From assembly GCA_046753965.1 (NCBI GenBank), contig JBHHUY010000010.1, forward strand, positions 1 through 24,000: 24,000 bases of DNA. The letters are read 5' to 3'. A program made the translations under genes and the position numbers. Under the pieces are notes generated by a model, which did no database searches, was not told the origin of the DNA, and was given only the letters and a program-made list of their open reading frames with translations. Shown in pieces: positions 3,762 through 18,485 of this stretch; the stretch's first letter is position 1; each line of letters begins with the position of its first letter. This DNA is from Phycisphaerae bacterium. Lineage in GTDB: Bacteria > Planctomycetota > Phycisphaerae > UBA1845 > UTPLA1.

Positions 3762-4208
3762 TCAGGCCGAATCCCCATCCTTTGGCTTCTGCACGGCCTT
3801 CAGGTCGATCTCGGCCGTATCGGGCTTGACCTGGGGAAAACGTGAACGATCAGGTTCCTGTCGTTGGGTTTCGAGCGCCCGCAGCAAATCGAGGATCCGC
3901 AGGACGATCACCACGCCGAGAAGCTGGCCGATCACGAAGACCAGATCGTGTCGAATCGAAGCGTAGACGAGAAGCATGACGGTCGCGAGCAGGGCGACGT
4001 AGAGCGTCGGCAACGGGATGGCGATTCGCCCGTACCGCCGCGATGCACGCCAATGAGCGACCAGACATCCGGCGATCATCATCTGGGCGAGCAGCCCGAA
4101 GAACACCCAGGCGACACCGACGCGCCCGCCCGTGAGCGTCTCGATCAGCGCGTCCAGATCAAGGTAGGAGGCGGCCATGAGCACAGCGCCCACTTCCAGA
4201 GGGTTCAT
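3762..4208 (-). CDS. Small integral membrane protein with a lipid-A-biosynthesis N-terminal (LAB_N, PF07578-like) domain
   Basis: Three hydrophobic helices. The segment LLVYASIRHDLVFVIGQLLGVVIVLRIL resembles the LAB_N signature (Y...r.D.VFi.GQ..g..iY.RN). I placed the start at ATG 4208-4206 (MNPLEVG), which overlaps the upstream gene's stop codon as ATGA. Confidence 0.55.
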   Translation of the reverse strand: MNPLEVGAVLMAASYLDLDALIETLTGGRVGVAWVFFGLLAQMMIAGCLVAHWRASRRYGRIAIPLPTLYVALLATVMLLVYASIRHDLVFVIGQLLGVVIVLRILDLLRALETQRQEPDRSRFPQVKPDTAEIDLKAVQKPKDGDSA

Positions 4209-4828
4209 GAAGCCTGCTTCCCCTTGCGTTCGGCCGGCGCGGTTCCGCTCATCGGGCGCCGCGACCACCGACCCGGCCGATGGGCCCTGAGTTGCCGCAA
4301 CTCAGGGCGATCATCTCCCATGTCCGGATCGAATGCGAGCATCTCCGCGACCGCCTGCTCAACCGTCCAACCCTGCCGCTCGATACGATACAAACCACAG
4401 AGGTAACCGGTCCGATGGCGCCCCGCGGAACAGTGAATGAGGACCGGCTGATGCGTTGGATCGTCGACGAAGCGGAAAAAGGCCTCGACCTGGCTGTCCG
4501 GGATGGGCTTTCGGCTCTCCACGGGGATGCGCCAGACCTCCAGTCCTCGCTCCCGGGCATAGGCGGCCTCGTCCGGTACGCGTTTGCTGACCCCGCTCCG
4601 GACGATCAGAATGCTCCGCAACCCGATTCTGCCGATCAGGTGGTCGATCTGGTGCTTGTTGGGCTGGGCGGATCGGTAAAGCAGGCCCGGCTCCACCGCG
4701 GCGAACCGCCTGGGAGTGGTGAAGTAATAGAGCCACAATGGGACCCCGACTGCCAACGCGACGGCTGTCGCGCCCAGGGCGAATCCGAACCGCTTGCGCC
4801 GTCGTATCTTCGGCGGAGAACTCAGCAT
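4205..4828 (-). CDS. Membrane-anchored cysteine phosphatase of the PTP/dual-specificity superfamily (CX5R)
   Basis: Exact active-site P-loop HCSAGRHRTG (C-X5-R followed by T/G). It is preceded by the LYRSAQP...ILIVRS fold pattern of atypical DSP/PTP-like phosphatases. A basic N-terminus and one hydrophobic helix (FGFALGATAVALAVGVPLWLYYF) indicate an N-terminal membrane anchor. Confidence 0.7.
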   Translation of the reverse strand: MLSSPPKIRRRKRFGFALGATAVALAVGVPLWLYYFTTPRRFAAVEPGLLYRSAQPNKHQIDHLIGRIGLRSILIVRSGVSKRVPDEAAYARERGLEVWRIPVESRKPIPDSQVEAFFRFVDDPTHQPVLIHCSAGRHRTGYLCGLYRIERQGWTVEQAVAEMLAFDPDMGDDRPELRQLRAHRPGRWSRRPMSGTAPAERKGKQAS

Positions 4829-4995: not shown

Positions 4996-5023
4996 TTGAC
5001 TCTGCGGATTTCGATCTTATGAT
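4996..5023 (+). promoter_or_regulatory. Near-consensus sigma-70-type promoter upstream of the GT2 gene and the whole plus-strand run
   Basis: TTGACT (4996-5001), 16-nt spacer, TATGAT (5018-5023). This is 5/6 in each hexamer against TTGACA/TATAAT. It lies in a locally AT-richer stretch of the 264-bp divergent intergenic region, about 70 nt upstream of the ATG at 5093. Confidence 0.45.
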
Positions 5024-5092: not shown

Positions 5093-5842
5093 ATGAAGGC
5101 CTTGATCGCGATTCCCGTCTTCAACGAGCAGCGATACGTGGCGAACATTCTCGCTCGCATCCGGCGCGTCGGGCACGACATCCTTGTCGTGGACGACGGC
5201 TCAACCGATGGCACGCCGGGCATCCTGGCCCGCGAGCCCGGCATCGCCGTGATTCGCCAGCCGGAGAACCGGGGCTATGGCCAGAGCCTGATCGAGGCTT
5301 TTCGCTATGCGGCGCGCGAGGGATACGACTGGCTCATCACGATCGACTGCGACGATCAGCACGAACCCGCCCACATCCCGGAGTTCGTCGAGCGTGCGGC
5401 TCGGGATGATGTCGACGTCGTTTCCGGCTCGCGCTATCTGGCTGCCATGCCCGGCAACACGGCCCCGCCGCCCGATCGACGGCAGATCAACCGGCGGATC
5501 ACGCGGTTGCTGAACCGCCGGCTCGGCCTCCGCCTGACCGATGCCTTCTGCGGCTTCAAGGCGTACCGGGTCGCCGCGGTTGAGCGGCTCTCACTCTCCA
5601 TCCCCGGCTATGCCTTCCCGCTCCAATTCTGGGTGCAGGCGGCACATCACGGCCTGCGTATCTGTGAGTTGCCGGTCCAGCTTATCTACAACGATCCGAC
5701 GCGACACTTCGGCGGCTTGCTCGACGACCCGGACTCCAGGCTGGCACATTACCTTGAGGTCTTCGACGCCGAACTGACAAAGACCGGATACCGGCACGCA
5801 GCCGCATCCCTTGCCGGCGAATCCCGATCCTGTTCGAATTGA
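5093..5842 (+). CDS. Family 2 glycosyltransferase, polyprenol-phosphate glycosyltransferase-like (DPM1/GtrB/ArnC type), soluble catalytic domain only
   Basis: The N-terminus IAIPVFNEQRYV...VVDDGSTDGT, the DXD region ITIDCDDQHEP and VSGSRY are the classic GT-A/GT2 DPM1-like pattern. The 249-aa protein has no evident transmembrane helices. Confidence 0.8.
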   Translation: MKALIAIPVFNEQRYVANILARIRRVGHDILVVDDGSTDGTPGILAREPGIAVIRQPENRGYGQSLIEAFRYAAREGYDWLITIDCDDQHEPAHIPEFVERAARDDVDVVSGSRYLAAMPGNTAPPPDRRQINRRITRLLNRRLGLRLTDAFCGFKAYRVAAVERLSLSIPGYAFPLQFWVQAAHHGLRICELPVQLIYNDPTRHFGGLLDDPDSRLAHYLEVFDAELTKTGYRHAAASLAGESRSCSN

Positions 5843-5936: not shown

Positions 5937-7538
5937 ATGACCGCAAGAACCGAGTCCGAGATCGACGCATTCGTCGCACCATCGGCCGACGGTGAACTCC
6001 TCGTCTGGCCGCGGACTCCGGGCCTGCGGGAGGCGGCAGAAGCCAACCGCCGACAACTGAGGAAAGGCGGCCTCCGTCTCCTCGACCGGCCCATCGAAGC
6101 CCTCTCGCCGAATCGGGCGGAGACGCGGCTGGTCTTCATGACCGGCCACCAGCCCGAGTTCTTCCATCCCGGTGTGTGGGCCAAGAACGTGGCCGCCGTG
6201 ATCCTCGCCGGCGCGACCGGCGGCGAAGCCCGCTTCCTCGTCGTCGACAGCGACGTCCCGCATCAAGTCGCACTGCGATGGCCGGATTGCGCCGCCCCTT
6301 ACTGCCAGGTCCGGACGGCGGCGGCCTCGCCGCGGGCGGAATGGCGTTCGTATGAGTTCATCAACGGCGAGACCGAGTATGCCGCGATGTTCGCGGCCCT
6401 CCCTCAGGCCTTCAGAAGTTCCCCGGACCGGCCTTTCCGCGCCTTCATGGGGGCCTTCCTCGGAGATGCGTCGGACGAGGAGCCTTCCGACCAGCCGATG
6501 CGATATGTCGAACGCTGGACACGCGGGATCGAGGCAGCCGAGGCCGCGATGGGCGCTCGCGCCCCTGCGCCTGAACGAATCAGCACGATCTTCGGCACCG
6601 GCCGATGCAGCGGCGCTCCGGCCGCCGCCACCTTCGCCGGCCACCTCATCCTGGAGGCCGATGCCATCTCGAACGCCTACAACACAGCGTTAGGCGAGTA
6701 TCGACGAAGGCGGCGCATTCGCGGCCGACAACACCCGATCCCCGACCTTCAGCGCTTGGGGGACCGGCTCGAAATGCCGTTCTGGTTGGTGCATCCCGAC
6801 CGGCCACGCGAGCGTCTGGCCGTTTCGGGCGTCCAATCGGGGGAGCGCCGGCTCTGGGCGGGACAGCGAGCGTTGGGTTCGGTCTCTCCGGCGGCGTTGC
6901 GGCGCGACCCTGCCGCGGCCCTATCACAAGCCCTCTGCGGCTGGCGAATCAGGCCTCGCGCCCTTGCGCAGACCATGTACGCCCGGCTGCTTGCCTGTGA
7001 CCTCTTCATCCACGGCATCGGCGGTGCGAAGTACGACCAGATCACCGACGGCATCATCCGGCGGTTCTTCGGCGTCGAGCCGCCGGCCTACGCCTGCGTC
7101 TCGGCGACCCTTCGGCTGGCGCTTCGGTCCTACGACATCACGGAGGCCGACCTGGCGAACCTCCGTCACGGGGCTCGCGATCTTCGCTATAACCCGCAGC
7201 GATACGTCGTCGATGGAGAACCGGCTTCCGAGGTTCAGGCTGTCCTGCACGAACGCCGACGGGCCATCGAGGCGTCCGACCGGCTGCGAGCCGAGAGGCC
7301 GAGAGACCGCGCGGCGCGGCGAGCGGCCTTCGAGCGCATTCATCGCGCGAACGCCGCGTTGCTCAGGGCGTCGCCGGGAGTTGTCGAAGCGGCGGCCCGG
7401 AGGCTCCGCGAGGCCGCGGCGAAACTCGAGAACGATCGAGTCGCTCGATCTCGCGAATGGTTCTTCGCGCTGTATCCGAAGACCGCCTTGGAGCGGCTCC
7501 GCGAGGCGATCCGGGCCGCCTTGCGGTCCAACCTGTGA
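5937..7538 (+). CDS. Conserved-looking protein of unknown function, distant BshC-like (putative Rossmann-fold ligase with a helical C-terminal domain)
   Basis: 533 aa. Three motifs resemble my recollection of BshC motifs: FMTGHQPEFFHPGVWAKN (aa 67-84) versus GGQQAGLLTGPLYTIHK; FLVVDSDVPH (aa 100-109) versus FWVAGEDHD; IRPRALAQ...IHGIGGAKYDQ (aa 338-368) versus LRP..Q....GGPGE..Y. The C-terminal ~100 aa is Arg/Ala-rich and helical, like the BshC coiled coil. The assignment was made by eye and needs an HMM search. Confidence 0.4.
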   Translation: MTARTESEIDAFVAPSADGELLVWPRTPGLREAAEANRRQLRKGGLRLLDRPIEALSPNRAETRLVFMTGHQPEFFHPGVWAKNVAAVILAGATGGEARFLVVDSDVPHQVALRWPDCAAPYCQVRTAAASPRAEWRSYEFINGETEYAAMFAALPQAFRSSPDRPFRAFMGAFLGDASDEEPSDQPMRYVERWTRGIEAAEAAMGARAPAPERISTIFGTGRCSGAPAAATFAGHLILEADAISNAYNTALGEYRRRRRIRGRQHPIPDLQRLGDRLEMPFWLVHPDRPRERLAVSGVQSGERRLWAGQRALGSVSPAALRRDPAAALSQALCGWRIRPRALAQTMYARLLACDLFIHGIGGAKYDQITDGIIRRFFGVEPPAYACVSATLRLALRSYDITEADLANLRHGARDLRYNPQRYVVDGEPASEVQAVLHERRRAIEASDRLRAERPRDRAARRAAFERIHRANAALLRASPGVVEAAARRLREAAAKLENDRVARSREWFFALYPKTALERLREAIRAALRSNL

Positions 7539-7551
7539 CGGAAGGCACGCC

Positions 7552-8463
7552 GTGGCCGACCCGCGTCCCGCTCATACCCCCGTCTTGCCCGAGCAGGTGG
7601 TCGCCTGCTTCTCGACCGATGGGTCGCGCACTGTGGTGGATTGCACGGTCGGCCTGGGGGGCCACGCCGAACTGCTTCTGGAGGCCTGCCCGGACCTGCG
7701 GATCATCGGCCTTGATGTGGATGATGAGAATCTGGCTGCGGCCGCGCGTCGTCTGGAAGCCCACGCGGACCGGGTCAAACTCGTCCACGCGAGCTTCGCG
7801 GGGCTGGAACAGGTGCTCGCCGAAGGAGACCACGGCCCCGTAGCCGGGATTCTGGCGGACCTCGGGGTCAGCAGCAACCAGATCAGCGACGCCCGTCGCG
7901 GCCTCAGCTTCGACATCGACGGGCCGCTCGACATGCGGCTGGATCGGCGGCTCAAGACGACCGCCGCCGATCTGGTCAACGGGCTCTCCGAGGGCGAGCT
8001 GTCCGATCTGCTCTACTTTCAGAGCCAGGAACGGCACAGCCGCAGAATCGCCAAACGGATTTGTCAAGTCCGGCGGCAGGGCCGGATCAGCAGCACCGTG
8101 CAGCTCGCGCGAATCGTGGCGTCGGCCGTCGGAGAACACCCGGACTCCCATCGGCGGCGAATCCACCCCGCGACCCGGACGTTCATGGCCCTGCGAATGT
8201 CGATCAATCAGGAACCGGCCGCGCTGCGGGAACTGCTCCGGATCGCCCCGGCAATCCTCGCCGAAGGCGGCCGAATCGCGGTCATCAGCTTCCACAGCGT
8301 CGAGGACCGAATCGTAAAAGATGACTTTCGGGCCCGATCTCGTGAAGGGATCTACCGGATTCTGACGAAAAAACCTATGGTTGCGAATGACGCGGAACGG
8401 GCGGCCAATCCGCGCAGCCGATCGGCGAAACTGAGGATCGCCGAGCGCCGGGCGACGAGATGA
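7552..8463 (+). CDS. rsmH: 16S rRNA (cytosine1402-N4)-methyltransferase RsmH (MraW)
   Basis: HTPVLPEQVV, DCTVGLGGHAELLL, ADLGVSSNQISD..RGLSF and SFHSVEDRIVKDDF are the canonical RsmH motifs. I placed the start at GTG 7552, preceded by GGAAGG at 7540-7545. The longer track ORF from 6964 overlaps the upstream gene in another frame. Confidence 0.9.
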   Translation: MADPRPAHTPVLPEQVVACFSTDGSRTVVDCTVGLGGHAELLLEACPDLRIIGLDVDDENLAAAARRLEAHADRVKLVHASFAGLEQVLAEGDHGPVAGILADLGVSSNQISDARRGLSFDIDGPLDMRLDRRLKTTAADLVNGLSEGELSDLLYFQSQERHSRRIAKRICQVRRQGRISSTVQLARIVASAVGEHPDSHRRRIHPATRTFMALRMSINQEPAALRELLRIAPAILAEGGRIAVISFHSVEDRIVKDDFRARSREGIYRILTKKPMVANDAERAANPRSRSAKLRIAERRATR

Positions 8464-8578
8464 AACCGTCGCGCGCGGTCGGCTTCCGGCCCCGGCGACA
8501 GGGATCGGCGGCGTCCGGTCGTCTTGCGTTTCTGGAAGGACCGGCTAAAATCACAACCCGGCACAGGGAGGTGCTTCA

Positions 8579-9745
8579 GTGACCAGGGAAACCAAAATCG
8601 GTCTGTTGGTGGGCCTCGCGTTCATCATCCTCTTCGCCATCATCCTCTCCGAAAAAGGCGATACTCGCGGAACCCAGCCCCCTTCCGGCTTGACGGTGGT
8701 GGATGCCAATCGATCGACCGGAGGGCCCCTATCAAACAACCAGGAACCGCTCTCTCGCGCGGGTCGCCTGCCGGTCAAGCCGGCCGCTCCCCAGCCAACC
8801 CAGATGGCCCGACACGACGCCGACGTCCCGACGATGTTGGAGGAGCCGGTCGGGAAGCCCATCCCGGCCGAGGACGAGGCCATCATGCCGTTGCCCGAGG
8901 CGGTCCGAAACCGGCTTAACATGCCGATGATCGAGACCGAGGTGGCCGTCAATCAGCCCGGCACCGAGGCGGGCGGATCGATGTCCTTGACGCAGGCGCT
9001 GACTTCGGCGCTGGAGGGAGCCGGTTCGGCGTCCTCTGATGCCGCCGTGGACGACACCGGCATGGCCGAGCCGATCACGCCTGACATGACCCAGGCGAGC
9101 ATGCTCGAGGCGCCCCCCGCCAAGGCCCCTCAAGCCGCGCCGCCGAAGTCCATGAAAACCATCGCAATTCACACCGTCCGGCCCCGCGAGAGCCTGAGCA
9201 AGATCGCCGCCCGGTACTACGGCCGGTCCACGCCGGCACGGGTTGCTGCGATCTTCAACGCCAATCGCGACCGCCTTAAGTCGATCGGGACGATTCGCGT
9301 GGGGCAGGAACTGAATATCCCACAACTGGATGAACTCCAGGGGATCGCTTTTCAGCCGGTGACCCATTTCGCGCCTTCGGAGCTTCCGCGTTCGCGATCA
9401 ACGCACCGCGAGATGTCCGTCCGGATTCCGGTGCCGCTTGACGCGCAGGCGGCACCCACCGCCCCGCCGATCGCGTCTGCCAAACGGGCGGAGCAGGCAC
9501 ACCCGGCTTCGCGGGCGTTCAGGTGGTATCAGGTCAGAGAGAAAGACACACTCAGCCGGATCGCGAAACGCGAATTGGGAGATGAGAAGCGCTTCCTCGA
9601 AATCTACCGGATGAACCAGGACATCATCCGCAACAAGCATCGGATCAAGCCGGGGATGAAGATCCGCCTGCCGGTCCGCACGGTGACGCGGGCGGGATCG
9701 GATGCCGCGTTGTCCGGCCTGGTTCCGTCGGCGATCGGGCCGTAG
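8579..9745 (+). CDS. Bitopic membrane protein with two C-terminal LysM peptidoglycan-binding domains
   Basis: GTG start at 8579 preceded by AGGGAGG (8565-8571). N-terminal helix IGLLVGLAFIILFAIIL. A long Pro/Ala/Gln/Glu-rich low-complexity linker follows. LysM 1: HTVRPRESLSKIAARYYG...IRVGQELNIP. LysM 2: YQVREKDTLSRIAKRELGD...IKPGMKIRLP. Confidence 0.8.
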   Translation: MTRETKIGLLVGLAFIILFAIILSEKGDTRGTQPPSGLTVVDANRSTGGPLSNNQEPLSRAGRLPVKPAAPQPTQMARHDADVPTMLEEPVGKPIPAEDEAIMPLPEAVRNRLNMPMIETEVAVNQPGTEAGGSMSLTQALTSALEGAGSASSDAAVDDTGMAEPITPDMTQASMLEAPPAKAPQAAPPKSMKTIAIHTVRPRESLSKIAARYYGRSTPARVAAIFNANRDRLKSIGTIRVGQELNIPQLDELQGIAFQPVTHFAPSELPRSRSTHREMSVRIPVPLDAQAAPTAPPIASAKRAEQAHPASRAFRWYQVREKDTLSRIAKRELGDEKRFLEIYRMNQDIIRNKHRIKPGMKIRLPVRTVTRAGSDAALSGLVPSAIGP

Positions 9746-9754
9746 GAGACGGCC

Positions 9755-10030
9755 ATGACCGTGCCGCGCGCGCTCCTGGTTCTGTTCATGCTGGTGATTA
9801 TCGGTGTGGCGATTGTGGCGATTCGCCAAGAATCGGCAAGAACGGCGAATCGCATCCAAACCCTCCACCGCCGGAAGATCACCCTCGAACAGACGCTTTG
9901 GACGAAGGAACTCGAACTGGCGAAGCTACGGGGCCCCGAGGCGATTCGCCGGCGGGCCGCAGAGCTGGGCTCGAACGTCGTTTCGCCGGGCGTGCCTCCG
10001 AGTTCCGATCGGCGTCGGAGCGGTTCCTAG
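9755..10030 (+). CDS. ftsL: FtsL-like cell division protein (short bitopic coiled-coil protein)
   Basis: 91 aa, ATG preceded by AGGAG. One TM helix (ALLVLFMLVIIGVAIVAI) is followed by a heptad-like helix and the tail PEAIRRRAAELG, typical of FtsL. It occupies the canonical position immediately upstream of ftsI. Confidence 0.6.
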   Translation: MTVPRALLVLFMLVIIGVAIVAIRQESARTANRIQTLHRRKITLEQTLWTKELELAKLRGPEAIRRRAAELGSNVVSPGVPPSSDRRRSGS

Positions 10031-14898: not shown

Positions 14899-16029
14899 GT
14901 GATCTATCACCTGCTCAAACACTTGATCAAGGGACACTACGGCTATGAGAACCCCCTCTTCCGCGCGACGGTCGCGATCCTGGTGGCGTTCCTGGTCGTC
15001 TGGACGCTCGGTCCTTCGGTCATCCGCTGGCTGATCCGGATGAAATGCGGCGACATCCCCGATTTCGATCACCGCGAGCTCAACGAACTGACGATCCACA
15101 AGGCCAACGTCCCGACCATGGGCGGGTTGCTGATCCTGTTCGGCGTGGCGACGGGCGTGCTCCTCCTGGCGGACCTCACGGTCTTCTACATCCATCTCGC
15201 GCTGACCTGCATGGCCTGGCTGGGCGCCGTCGGCTTCTGCGACGACTGGTTCAAGCTCATGGACAAGGGCAAAAACCGTAACCGAGACGGACTCAAGTTC
15301 TACCAGAAACTGCTGTTTCAGATGGGACTGGGCGTGATGCTCGGCTTTTTCATCTACAAGGTCGGGAAGCAGGCCTATCAAGGGCAGGAGATCGAGCTCT
15401 TCCGAATCCTCAGCATTCCCTTCGTCAAGGGCGACCTTCAAAATCCGATCCTCCTGTCCGTGCCCGCCTTCATCATCATCACCATTCTTGTCGTCGCCGG
15501 CACCTCCAACGCCGTGAACCTCACCGACGGAATGGACGGGCTGGCCGCCGGCTGCGTCGCCATGTGCTGTCTCGTGTTCATGTTGCTCTCTTTCGCCGTG
15601 GGAAACGAGGATCTGGCGCGCTACCTCCAGTATTCTCACATCCCCAGGGCCGGCGAACTTTCGGTCCTCTGCGGCGCGATGCTGGGGGCTTCGCTGGGAT
15701 TCCTCTGGTACAACGCCAACCCGGCCCAGGTTTTCATGGGCGACACGGGCTCCCTTCCGCTCGGCGGCCTGATCGGGTTCGTCGCCATCGTGATCCGCCA
15801 GGAACTCATGTTGCTGATCGTCGGGGGCGTATTCGTCATCGAGGCGCTCTCAGTGATGCTCCAGGTCGGATACTTCAAGGCCAGCGGCGGCAAACGGCTC
15901 TTCCTCATCGCCCCGATCCACCACCACTTTCACCTCAAAGGATGGAAGGAGAATCAGGTCGTTATCCGATTCTGGCTGCTGTCCGCCCTCTTCGCGGTCG
16001 TGGCCTTGGCGACGACAAAACTCCGATAG
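14899..16029 (+). CDS. mraY: Phospho-N-acetylmuramoyl-pentapeptide transferase MraY
   Basis: PTMGGLLIL, CDDWFKL, NAVNLTDGMDGLA, MGDTGSLPLGG and APIHHHF are canonical MraY motifs in a polytopic membrane protein. GTG start at 14899. Confidence 0.9.
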   Translation: MIYHLLKHLIKGHYGYENPLFRATVAILVAFLVVWTLGPSVIRWLIRMKCGDIPDFDHRELNELTIHKANVPTMGGLLILFGVATGVLLLADLTVFYIHLALTCMAWLGAVGFCDDWFKLMDKGKNRNRDGLKFYQKLLFQMGLGVMLGFFIYKVGKQAYQGQEIELFRILSIPFVKGDLQNPILLSVPAFIIITILVVAGTSNAVNLTDGMDGLAAGCVAMCCLVFMLLSFAVGNEDLARYLQYSHIPRAGELSVLCGAMLGASLGFLWYNANPAQVFMGDTGSLPLGGLIGFVAIVIRQELMLLIVGGVFVIEALSVMLQVGYFKASGGKRLFLIAPIHHHFHLKGWKENQVVIRFWLLSALFAVVALATTKLR

Positions 16030-16041
16030 CCGCGTTCGCCG

Positions 16042-17316
16042 ATGATAGACGGGGCGGACGGCCGATCGTTCAGCTCGGTGACCCCCTGGAGGCAGGAAAT
16101 GCTTCGCGTCGACAGCCAGCCGTCGCCCACCAGCACAACGATCACCATCGCCGCATCCGCGCTGCTCGGCCTCGGCATCGTCATGGTCTTCTCCGCCGGT
16201 GCGAGCCTGTCTGCGCCGCCGCTGACCGAGCATCCGCTTCGCAACCCATCGGTGCGCCAGGCCGGGTTCACCCTCGCGGCCCTCACCACCATGCTGATGG
16301 TGGGCTTGTGTCCCTATGATTCGTGGCGAATCCGCAGGCGATCGTTCTTCCAGCCGGTCCTCCTGCTCCTGCTGCTCATCCTCGTTCCCGGCATCGGCGA
16401 ATCCCGTCACGGGGCCCGGCGATGGCTGCCGCTCGGCCCGGCCGGCCTGGGGCTCGGGTTTCAGCCCTCGGAAGTCGCAAAGCTGGCGCTCGTGCTGTTC
16501 CTGGCCGCGTTTTGCTCGCGCATCGGCGATAGGATTCGCAGTTTCTGGCTCGGGTTTCTGCCGGCCGTCGCCGTGATCGGTACCATCGTCGGCTTGGTCG
16601 GAGTCGAGGACTTCGGTACGGCGGCCTTATTGGCTGTCGTCGGGGTTTCGATCCTGTTGGCAGGCGGCGCGAGGCCGTGGCACCTGCTGCTCCTCAGTCT
16701 GCCCGCCGTGGGAGGCGTCGTCACCCTGATCGCAATGAAACCTTATCGCCTCGCGCGGTTGACGTCGTTTCTTCATCCGGAGGCCGACCCGCAGGGCGCG
16801 GGGTACCACCAGATCCAATCGCTCGTGACGATCGCCTCGGGCGGCTGGTGGGGAAGAGGTCTTGGTGCCGGCATCCAGAAGTACGGCTATTTGCCCGAGG
16901 GGCGGACGGACTTTATCTTCGCCGTGATTTGCGAGGAATTGGGAATCGTCGGCGGCATCGCCGTGATCGCGTTGTTCGGCGTCCTGCTCTGGCAAGGCAG
17001 ACGCGCGATGCAGCGGGCCCCGAACGAGTTCGGGCGCCTCCTCGCCCTGGGGGTCACGCTCATGATCGGCTTGCAGGCGGCCATGAATGTCGCGGTCGTG
17101 ACGGTTTCGGTTCCGACCAAAGGCATCGGCCTTCCACTGGTATCCGCCGGCGGAACAGGCGTCGTCCTCTTCAGCATCCTCATCGGCCTTCTCGTCAACG
17201 TGGCGCGGCGACGATCTCCCGAAAGAAGCCGGCGACCGCGGAGCGATGTGGTTGCCCCCGTTCTCCCACCGGTTTCGTTCGCCGGTACACTCGCGACCAC
17301 GAGTGAGGCGCATTGA
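16042..17316 (+). CDS. ftsW: SEDS-family peptidoglycan glycosyltransferase / lipid II flippase-like protein FtsW
   Basis: Polytopic protein with the FtsW/RodA/SpoVE motifs RWLPLGP...FQPSEVAKLALVLFLA, PEGRTDFIFAVICEELG and GIGLPLVSAGGTG. It sits in the dcw cluster between mraY and murG. The start could be 16042 or the internal ATG near 16099. Confidence 0.85.
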   Translation: MIDGADGRSFSSVTPWRQEMLRVDSQPSPTSTTITIAASALLGLGIVMVFSAGASLSAPPLTEHPLRNPSVRQAGFTLAALTTMLMVGLCPYDSWRIRRRSFFQPVLLLLLLILVPGIGESRHGARRWLPLGPAGLGLGFQPSEVAKLALVLFLAAFCSRIGDRIRSFWLGFLPAVAVIGTIVGLVGVEDFGTAALLAVVGVSILLAGGARPWHLLLLSLPAVGGVVTLIAMKPYRLARLTSFLHPEADPQGAGYHQIQSLVTIASGGWWGRGLGAGIQKYGYLPEGRTDFIFAVICEELGIVGGIAVIALFGVLLWQGRRAMQRAPNEFGRLLALGVTLMIGLQAAMNVAVVTVSVPTKGIGLPLVSAGGTGVVLFSILIGLLVNVARRRSPERSRRPRSDVVAPVLPPVSFAGTLATTSEAH

Positions 17317-17366
17317 CCGGCGCGGCGCGCGGCGGCACGTTCTTGCAATCAAACAGAGCAAGATGA

Positions 17367-18485
17367 ATGCCCACCGATAGACCTTGGTTCGTCATCGCCG
17401 GCGGCGGAACGGGTGGACATCTCTATCCGGGGCTGGCCGTGGCGGATGCGCTCCGCGCTGGCGCGCCGGACTATGATGTCACCGTCTTCGGAACGCCGCG
17501 CCCGATCGACAGGCGTCTGACCGAGCCACGCCGGATCGAACTCGTCGAACAACCCGTCCTGCCGTTTCCCCGGAAACCGCTGGAACTCTACCGGTTTCTC
17601 CGGGCCTGGCGTTGCTCCGTCACGGCGGCGCGGGCGCGTTTCAAGAAACGCAGGCCCGCCGTCGTCCTGGGGTTGGGCGGCTATGCCGCGGGGCCGCCCT
17701 TCGTCGCCGCGGCGAAGCTGCGGGTTCCCACAGCATTGTTCAACCCGGATGCGCTTCCGGGCCTCGCCAACAGGCGTCTGGCCCCGAAGGCAGATCGCAT
17801 CTTCGTCCAGTGGCGGGAAACGGCCGAGCAATTCAGTCGATCAGAACGCGTCCGCTGCACCGGCTGTCCCATCCGCGCCGACTTCGCCTTCGCCGATCGT
17901 GCCGAGGCTGTTCACGCCCTGAAGCTCGATCCCCGGCGCAAGACGCTCCTTGTCACCGGAGCCTCCCAGGGCGCCTGGTCCATCAACGCCGCGATGCTCC
18001 AGCTTGTTGACCTCTGGCGAGCCCTCACCGACTGGCAGATCGTCCATCTGACCGGCACAACCGATCTGCAGACCTGTCGTCAGAAGTACGCGCAAGAAGG
18101 CATCCGCGCGCGGACCTTCGCGTTCACCGAGCACATGCCGCGGTGCATGGCCGCCGCCGATCTGATCCTGAGTCGCGCGGGGGCGGGCACGCTCGCGGAA
18201 ATCACGGCGATGGGTCTGCCCAGCGTCCTGATGCCTTATCCGTTCGACAGAAAGAAGCACCAGCTCGCGAACGCCCGAGTCCTGGTCGGCGCGCATGCCG
18301 CCGTGCTCGTCGAGGACGCGAACAACCCGGAGATCAACGCGGAACGCCTGCGCGGGGTTCTCGGCAATCTCATGAAATCCGAGGACCGACGTCGTCATCT
18401 GGGTGAGGTGGCCGGTGCGATGGGACGGCACGACGCCGCGGAAACCATCGCCGCCGAATTGCTCGAGCTGGCGCGCGCGGGTTGA
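17367..18485 (+). CDS. murG: Undecaprenyldiphospho-muramoylpentapeptide beta-N-acetylglucosaminyltransferase MurG
   Basis: N-terminal AGGGTGGHLYPGLAVADAL, TGASQGA, and SRAGAGTLAEITAMGLPSVLMPYP are typical MurG (GT28) motifs. Confidence 0.9.
   Translation: MPTDRPWFVIAGGGTGGHLYPGLAVADALRAGAPDYDVTVFGTPRPIDRRLTEPRRIELVEQPVLPFPRKPLELYRFLRAWRCSVTAARARFKKRRPAVVLGLGGYAAGPPFVAAAKLRVPTALFNPDALPGLANRRLAPKADRIFVQWRETAEQFSRSERVRCTGCPIRADFAFADRAEAVHALKLDPRRKTLLVTGASQGAWSINAAMLQLVDLWRALTDWQIVHLTGTTDLQTCRQKYAQEGIRARTFAFTEHMPRCMAAADLILSRAGAGTLAEITAMGLPSVLMPYPFDRKKHQLANARVLVGAHAAVLVEDANNPEINAERLRGVLGNLMKSEDRRRHLGEVAGAMGRHDAAETIAAELLELARAG

Follow-up and report, generated by a model that had tools for sequence, protein, structure and literature searches.

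Locus of the BshC-fold gene

The subject of this analysis is a 24,000-nucleotide (nt) stretch of a Phycisphaerae bacterium genome (assembly GCA_046753965.1, contig JBHHUY010000010.1, positions 1 to 24,000; here termed the window), in which a gene coding for a protein predicted to adopt the fold of the bacillithiol biosynthesis enzyme BshC lies between the genes for a soluble glycosyltransferase of family 2 (GT2) and the 16S rRNA methyltransferase RsmH (Table 1). An initial annotation of this DNA placed the BshC-like gene immediately upstream of rsmH, and the spacing agrees: the GTG start codon of rsmH at position 7552 is located 13 nt past the stop of the BshC-fold gene and is preceded by a ribosome-binding site, GGAAGG, at positions 7540-7545. 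No terminator-like hairpin was found between the GT2 gene, the BshC-fold gene and rsmH. The first one follows rsmH and is a weak match, with 1 found against 2.0 expected, and the promoter in front of the GT2 gene is a consensus match only, with 1 found against 0.4 expected in shuffled sequences.

Table 1. Coordinates of the features discussed, in positions of the window
Feature	Position	Strand	Details
LAB_N-domain membrane protein, divergent from GT2	3762-4268	-	Overlapped by the phosphatase gene immediately upstream of it
Protein tyrosine/dual-specificity (PTP/DSP)-type phosphatase, divergent from GT2	4205-4828	-	PF03162, E 8.9e-17
Sigma-70-like promoter match, TTGACT-16-TATGAT	4996..5023	+	10/12; about 70 nt 5' of the GT2 start
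Soluble GT2 glycosyltransferase, GT-A fold, DPM1/PpgS/ArnC-like	5093..5842	+	249 amino acids (aa); PF00535, E 1.3e-31
BshC-fold protein gene, predicted ligase	5937..7538	+	533 aa; member of an unannotated family
Motif 1, T-G-H-Q-P-x3-H-P-G-V-W-x-K	6141..6185	+	Residues 69-83; at the junction of strand beta-1 and a helix, where class I enzymes have the HIGH signature
Motif 2, D104-S-D106	6246..6254	+	Aligned with DHD of canonical BshC (hhalign)
Motif 3, residues 339-367, R-P-R-A...R350...D355...H359-G-x-G-G-x-K-Y-D	6951..7037	+	Aligned with LRP...GPGE..Y of BshC (hhalign)
C-terminal helical domain, helices 431-453, 458-478, 480-503, 515-530	7227..7526	+	AlphaFold2 secondary structure; predicted counterpart of the BshC coiled-coil dimerization domain
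rsmH (16S rRNA m4C1402 methyltransferase), first gene of the local cluster of cell division and wall genes (dcw)	7552..8463	+	PF01795, E 6.6e-90
Terminator-like hairpin, 3' of rsmH	8507..8523	+	Consensus match

Distant homology to BshC

Direct sequence models do not recognize the BshC-fold protein. It matched no Pfam or NCBIfam family at E<=10, neither of the BshC models that the initial annotation had put forward as a check (PF10079 and TIGR03998) detected it, and no PDB chain was matched by phmmer or by a profile of 36 family sequences. Further, PF10079 had no match in the whole source genome; the B. subtilis, Thermus and Deinococcus controls were positive. The relationship to BshC is visible only when folds are searched or profiles are compared with each other. 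A confident AlphaFold2 model, for which the family alignment served as input (predicted local distance difference test [pLDDT] 91.5, predicted template modeling score [pTM] 0.89) recovered from the PDB, as the top and sole strong Foldseek match, the crystal structure of B. subtilis BshC (4WBD; E 1.5e-10, probability 1.0). The alignment runs over the whole length of the fold, with 520 aligned columns of 540 and 11% identity, and the structural comparison with 4WBD that had been proposed thus favors the relationship. The weak matches that follow are to class I aminoacyl-tRNA synthetases, namely, CysRS (8qhp; E 3.8e-3) and then GlnRS and TyrRS.

For profile-profile comparison, we used a reference alignment of 19 genuine BshC proteins from Planctomycetota, which itself matches 4WBD at 1.8e-118. 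Against this reference, hhalign scored the family at 77.6% (E 1.9e-5) and a broader 50-sequence family profile at 94.0% (E 1.4e-7, 299 columns), with the GT2 alignment as a negative control reaching 0.09%. In a maximum-likelihood tree, the family forms one clade with 100% support, separated by about 2.9 substitutions per site from canonical BshC and taking in very divergent forms of 430-460 aa from Phycisphaerales. The idea of a divergent BshC-like protein, the core of the initial annotation, is therefore borne out by the Foldseek match, the profile comparison and the position of the family as a clade of its own in a phylogeny with BshC. On the basis of the modeled fold and the aligned profiles, we identify the window protein as a predicted homologue with the BshC fold that is outside the BshC family as databases define it.

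The family shares with BshC (YllA of B. subtilis) the predicted class-I-like Rossmann core with CP insertions, a predicted C-terminal helical dimerization domain, a similar length and the order of its motifs. BshC dimerizes through a coiled coil (PMC5790435). At the corresponding end of the window protein, where an Arg/Ala-rich helical region of about 100 aa had been noted, long helices are predicted at residues 431-530.

Conserved motifs and the predicted active site

The motifs by which the protein was first compared with BshC are all present in the 533-aa sequence: GHQPEFFHPGVWAKN at residues 70-84, FLVVDSDVPH at 100-109, RPRALAQ at 339-345 and GIGGAKYDQ at 360-368; only the spacer between the last two, given as 15 residues, counts 14. 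The hhalign columns reproduce the proposed pairing of these motifs with BshC, in that T-G-H-Q-P aligns with T-G-Q-Q-P, K83 with an invariant lysine, D104-S-D106 with D-H-D, L/I-R-P-R-A with L-R-P and G360..G363..Y366 with G..E..Y. Of the BshC signature GQQ(P/A)G...K, (S/E)DHD and LRP...GPGE..Y, the family keeps the invariant G, the second Q, the K, the first and third D, the R-P, the G and the Y and differs from it in that the first Q of GQQ is His71, GGPL is H77-x-G79, the H of DHD is Ser (giving DSD) and the invariant Glu is G363.

Across 121 family members, which are 21-53% identical to the window protein, 12 residues are invariant in 120-121 sequences: G70, H71, G79 and K83 (120/121); W283; and D104, D106, R350, G360, G362, G363 and Y366 (121/121). 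H77 (113/121), R341 (118/121), N249, E279, D355, D367 and R506 are nearly invariant. Given this degree of conservation in the alignment, the motifs are evidently not due to chance. About 20 polar residues that are invariant over the 121 sequences cluster in the motifs of the Rossmann core, which is typical of an active site and argues against the notion that the protein is a catalytically inactive scaffold or regulator of the GT2 in which the BshC fold has merely been kept. We consider such a role very improbable, even though BshC activity has never been shown in vitro and the family has no KMSKS motif, both of which would accord with it.

Comparison with CysRS and the related mycothiol ligase MshC indicates that the family has in common with them a Rossmann nucleotide-binding core and the His and Gly at the first and third positions of the HIGH signature. 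The latter are supplied by H77-P-G79-V at the strand-to-helix junction that corresponds to the class I HIGH position, where canonical BshC has GGPL. Unlike CysRS and MshC, the sequence of the BshC-fold protein contains no full HIGH and no KMSKS-like string, H77-P-G79-V being all that is found at the HIGH position, and the structural match is much weaker than that to BshC. It also lacks conserved cysteines for a zinc site of the CysRS/MshC type, with C354 present in 39/121 and C387 in 69/121 members. A site of this type formed by C354, H359 and C387 was considered and rejected because the cysteines are not conserved.

The family is large. A word-seeded search retrieved 872 homologues, and an exhaustive profile search (E<=1e-3) retrieved 3,730 clusters at 50% identity. 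All of the homologues are unannotated, and those from named organisms all belong to Planctomycetota. When members outside this phylum were sought with a divergent query (f3), matches were found only in Phycisphaerales, along with two divergent contigs with GT2 only. These searches define a large protein family for which there is no database model.

A GT2 glycosyltransferase as the conserved genomic partner

We examined the neighborhoods of 120 family loci, 40 from GTDB representative genomes and 80 named, with neighbors located by tblastn. The named loci come from Phycisphaerae, Planctomycetia (among them Blastopirellula marina DSM 3645, Thalassoglobus, Pirellulaceae and Gemmataceae) and "Candidatus Scalindua". 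A GT2 gene lies directly 5' of the family gene on the same strand in 71 of the 76 named loci with enough upstream sequence and in 19/41 GTDB loci; this adjacency spans Phycisphaerae, Planctomycetia and Brocadiia, and in one locus (L200) the two genes overlap by 4 nt. The conserved partner of the BshC-fold gene is the upstream GT2 and not the downstream dcw genes.

Several other genes recur near the pair. In 8 loci, the gene before the GT2 codes for a MurG/MGDG-synthase-like glycosyltransferase, and 9 loci have a PAP2-like phosphatase gene upstream on the opposite strand (L124-L188). Downstream of the family gene and on its strand, 25-43 of 80 loci have genes for DUF1844, rhomboid-TPR and class IV (D-amino-acid/branched-chain) aminotransferase proteins (L124-L188); we read these three as lineage synteny. 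The LAB_N protein and the PTP-type phosphatase of the window were rejected as parts of the system, as their location beside the GT2/BshC-fold pair is not conserved in other genomes.

Phyletic patterns in Planctomycetota

The same 301 Planctomycetota genomes were searched with six queries and the resulting lists intersected. The new family was found in 51 genomes and canonical BshC (PF10079) in 157, no genome had both, and 93 had neither. Canonical bshC is usually clustered with bshB and bshA (e.g., G014:C98:23328-26783). BshA (TIGR03999) scored over its cut-off in 143/301 genomes, nearly all of them holders of canonical BshC, and in 0/51 holders of the new family. The GT2 clade of the window, counted at E<=1e-40, is present in 56/301 genomes, comprising 50 of the 51 holders, five genomes of the group f45 (see below) and one incomplete genome; holders in the group f38 keep the GT2 unlinked to the family gene. 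The BshB1-type deacetylase (TIGR04001, counted at E<=1e-30) is present in 210/301 genomes, with 49/51 holders of the new family, 152/157 canonical holders and 9/93 genomes with neither. At least 15 holders of the new family, among the matches listed, exceed the curated BshB1 cut-off of 182.5 bits, and the 174 genomes over this cut-off outnumber the 152 canonical holders with any match. Cooccurrence with a BshB1-type deacetylase is thus a further property that the family has in common with BshC, the glycosyltransferase of the latter being the GT4 enzyme BshA and that of the former a GT2. The observation that the window has no bshA (GT4) or bshB holds for the contig, on which there is no GT4 or BshB-like gene; the genome-wide matches are all on other contigs.

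In the class to which the window belongs, one group (f5) has the canonical enzyme, four (f1-f4) have the new family and two (f6-f7) have neither, and as the three states interleave within one class, the pattern is not that of one clade's inheritance. The protein had been suggested to represent a functionally distinct paralogous family. This suggestion needs revision: in view of its strict exclusion with canonical BshC, together with the presence of BshB1 in nearly all holders, the protein appears to be the final enzyme in a variant pathway of the same type, in which a GT2 stands in for BshA. The cultured Blastopirellula marina DSM 3645 illustrates this state, with the GT2->BshC-fold pair, a BshB1 of 212 bits, no PF10079 match and a best GT4 of 126 bits against a BshA cut-off of 274.

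A third pathway configuration is seen in the five f45 genomes, which have a canonical-type BshC and BshB but no BshA. In 4/5 of these, the gene immediately after bshC is a GT2 of the window's clade, in the slot that bshB occupies in 13/20 canonical loci. The corresponding loci are L099 7742-10128 and L100 7748-10125, with two more in G205 and G135; the GT2 match in G135 has two stop codons. The f45 BshC was considered as an evolutionary intermediate, a reading rejected because it nests inside canonical BshC in the tree. In another genome (G172; L076 8995-14233), the gene of a divergent family member of 442 aa shares about 100 nt with the GT4 gene downstream of it, which scores 175 bits on BshA and is followed by a xylose-isomerase-like TIM barrel; the GT2 is 3 kb away on the other strand. 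Both types of glycosyltransferase may act in this organism.

A predicted variant of the bacillithiol pathway

On the basis of the conserved pair, the phyletic profile and the predicted fold, we propose, with a probability of roughly 0.55, that the GT2, BshB and the BshC-fold predicted ligase constitute a variant bacillithiol-like pathway. In the first step, the soluble inverting GT2 would take the role of BshA and place an N-acetylhexosamine (HexNAc), most likely N-acetylglucosamine (GlcNAc), on an acceptor. In the second, for which the phyletic profile points to an unlinked BshB1-type zinc deacetylase (on contig C114 in the source genome), the 2-amino group would be freed. In the third, suggested by fold and homology, the BshC-fold protein, acting as a dimer formed through its C-terminal helical domain, would use its class-I-synthetase-like Rossmann core to join an activated amino acid, most likely cysteine, to this amine. 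The residues probably involved in the ligation are the invariant H71, G79, K83, D104, D106, R350 and G360-G363/Y366 and the nearly invariant H77. The product would be a low-molecular-weight thiol of the form Cys-hexosamine (HexN)-X. A literature search found no paper on the family or on a GT2-dependent bacillithiol-like route. More tentatively, and at odds that we place short of even, we suggest that the GT2, BshB1 and the ligase make a cysteine-hexosamine thiol not described so far, which would serve as the main redox buffer for about one-sixth of Planctomycetota, including the anammox "Candidatus Scalindua" and the cultured Blastopirellula marina, and that the ligase, which keeps the HIGH-position His lost in canonical BshC, may be ATP dependent and open to reconstitution in vitro.

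Several observations weigh against this pathway. An inverting GT2 cannot make alpha-GlcNAc-malate, the product of BshA, and the closest solved relatives of the GT2 (ArnC, DPMS and GtrB) all use polyprenyl phosphates. A diverged GT4 may also act as BshA in holders; in G172, a GT4 overlaps the 3' end of the family gene. BshB is never found beside the pair, with none within 6-9 kb in the 120 Planctomycetota loci, and is encoded elsewhere in the genomes; the BshB-like protein of the source genome, at 146.9 bits, is below the 182.5-bit cut-off. Related genomes are not independent, so the cooccurrence statistics overstate the signal, and Fisher values are not to be taken as probabilities. Among proteins associated with bacillithiol, YpdA is absent from the f3, f9 and f38 holders, YtxJ was found in 0/5 holders (and in 0/5 genomes with neither type of BshC and 2/5 canonical holders), and BrxA/B were found in 0/5 holders, with only the B. 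subtilis control being positive. Finally, the BshC reaction itself has never been reconstituted in vitro (PMC5790435).

The affinities of the GT2 invite as the main rival a pathway of lipid-linked aminosugar modification. In this scheme, the GT2 would make a polyprenyl-phosphate-HexNAc at the membrane surface, the "BshB," as a deacetylase of the PIG-L/LmbE type, would expose the amine, and the BshC-fold enzyme would aminoacylate or acylate the lipid-linked HexN before its transfer to an envelope glycan. Parallels are provided by ArnD, which deacylates undecaprenyl phosphate-linked formylated aminoarabinose (Und-P-Ara4FN), and by PIG-L, which acts on GlcNAc-phosphatidylinositol (GlcNAc-PI). Indeed, the best NCBIfam match of the GT2 is PpgS (109.7 bits, below cut-off), its PDB profile matches are to DPMS (7e-21) and ArnC (5e-19), and its AlphaFold2 model (pLDDT 94) matches ArnC, DPMS and GtrB in Foldseek with template modeling (TM) scores of 0.65-0.71, with an alignment that covers the juxtamembrane helices. 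The logic of a GT2 followed by a deacylase is also common to the ArnC/ArnD and PpgS systems, which differ from that described here in having no BshC-fold enzyme and deacylases that are not of the BshB1 type. ArnC, DPMS and GtrB carry transmembrane helices, whereas none was predicted in the window GT2; PpgS-type enzymes likewise lack them, which favors the lipid scheme. In the window, moreover, the LAB_N membrane protein and PTP-type phosphatase lie divergently upstream and envelope genes of the dcw cluster lie downstream.

Nevertheless, we regard the lipid-linked scheme as unlikely. The LAB_N and phosphatase genes are not kept beside the pair elsewhere, dcw adjacency occurs in only 5-6/120 loci, and neither a flippase nor a GT-C transferase has a conserved gene in the vicinity. 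By score, the deacetylases of holders are BshB1 equivalogs, and a lipid as the product of the GT2 would be difficult to reconcile both with the strict exclusion between the family and the soluble BshA/BshC pathway and with the f45 state. Further, the GT2 model is also matched by GT-A enzymes whose acceptors are small hydroxy acids, as Foldseek retrieved glucosyl-3-phosphoglycerate synthase (GpgS, TM score 0.66) and mannosylglycerate synthase.

It is also conceivable, if rather improbable in our estimate, that the pathway is soluble but yields a HexN conjugate that is not a thiol, with another amino acid or an acyl group attached, to serve as an osmolyte, metal chelator or signaling glycoside. 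The sequence gives no pointer to cysteine as the substrate, the zinc site by which CysRS and MshC recognize cysteine has no conserved counterpart (as seen above for C354 and C387), and YtxJ and Brx are absent from the holders examined. To our knowledge, however, canonical BshC likewise lacks the CysRS zinc site, and the exclusion with BshA/BshC, the lack of glutathione synthase (GshB) over cut-off in holders (0/5) and the linkage of BshB1 to YpdA in one holder point to a thiol role. In this holder (G093), BshB1 (218.7 bits) lies 2 kb from a putative bacillithiol-disulfide reductase of the YpdA family (307 bits), and three f2 holders have similar full-length YpdA-like genes; most of the remaining holders lack YpdA, and so do most canonical holders. 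As bacillithiol markers, YtxJ, BrxA/B and YpdA are all of too uneven occurrence to be decisive, YtxJ and BrxA/B being patchy or limited to Firmicutes, and only the YpdA matches of G093 and f2 are suggestive. The small G093 cluster (L193 4847-8439) consists of the YpdA-like reductase, an unannotated 580-aa protein without an NCBIfam match and BshB1, and the gene for the 580-aa protein may be part of the thiol system.

The dcw neighborhood

Downstream of rsmH, the gene order is LysM protein, FtsL-like open reading frame (ORF), ftsI, murE, murF, mraY, ftsW and murG. The 388-aa LysM protein between rsmH and the FtsL-like ORF (window 8579-10030) is kept in this arrangement in five close relatives. 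Within window positions 14899-18485, ftsW directly follows mraY with no murD between them, and the genes after murG code for a BamB-like propeller protein and an alpha-amylase, in place of murC, ddl or ftsQAZ.

The initial annotation had inferred that the link of the family to the dcw cluster is conserved across very distant phyla, an inference that the neighborhood counts largely refute. An rsmH gene follows the family gene in 5/80 named loci, and convergent dcw genes are found in a further locus; these six come from the nearest kin of the window. The 40 GTDB loci gave no dcw gene within 9 kb (0/40), and no rsmH lies near bshC in 20 canonical Planctomycetota loci. In the source genome, mraZ (PF02381, 51 bits) is on another contig (G000:C11:17977-19434; L001 1225-3051), which indicates that this lineage has undergone a rearrangement at the head of the dcw cluster. 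On that contig, mraZ directly follows the best, sub-threshold BshA-like GT4 of the genome, detached from rsmH and the dcw cluster. A position of B. subtilis yllA just upstream of the dcw genes, as given in the initial annotation, is consistent with PMC5656894; the resemblance to that position is most plausibly coincidental.

A BshC paralogue with a distinct role in cell division or wall synthesis, holding an ancient and conserved place at the head of the dcw cluster, is therefore scarcely credible. The 13-nt gap and the lack of an intervening terminator in the window, the same arrangement in five close relatives and the reported location of yllA would fit such a role, but in 114/120 loci of relatives dcw genes are missing within 6-9 kb, which also applies to 20/20 canonical Planctomycetota bshC loci, the cluster head is rearranged in the source genome, and with about 200 sampled lineages one chance juxtaposition would be unsurprising. 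We accordingly rejected the dcw link as a property of the family. That the gene sits ahead of rsmH reflects a local rearrangement in this lineage and has no part in the mechanism, and in annotation the function of the BshC-fold gene should not be inferred from its adjacency to rsmH.

Implications for thiol biology in Planctomycetota

In 2018, Hiras et al. included Planctomycetes in a list of major lineages that have "no documented or predicted" thiol of low molecular weight (PMC6282198). The statement that no thiol is predicted does not agree with our sample of Planctomycetota, about half of which has canonical bshC. The sample falls into three groups: about half of the genomes have canonical bshA-bshB-bshC, about one-sixth have the GT2 and BshC-fold pair with BshB, and the rest have none. 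This three-way split offers a concrete hypothesis for the missing redox buffer that is testable in culture. A second, differently equipped branch of the BshC fold would also offer a way into the unsolved BshC reaction; if the ligase is indeed ATP dependent and makes a cysteine-hexosamine thiol, its reconstitution in vitro could reveal how BshC-type enzymes activate cysteine.

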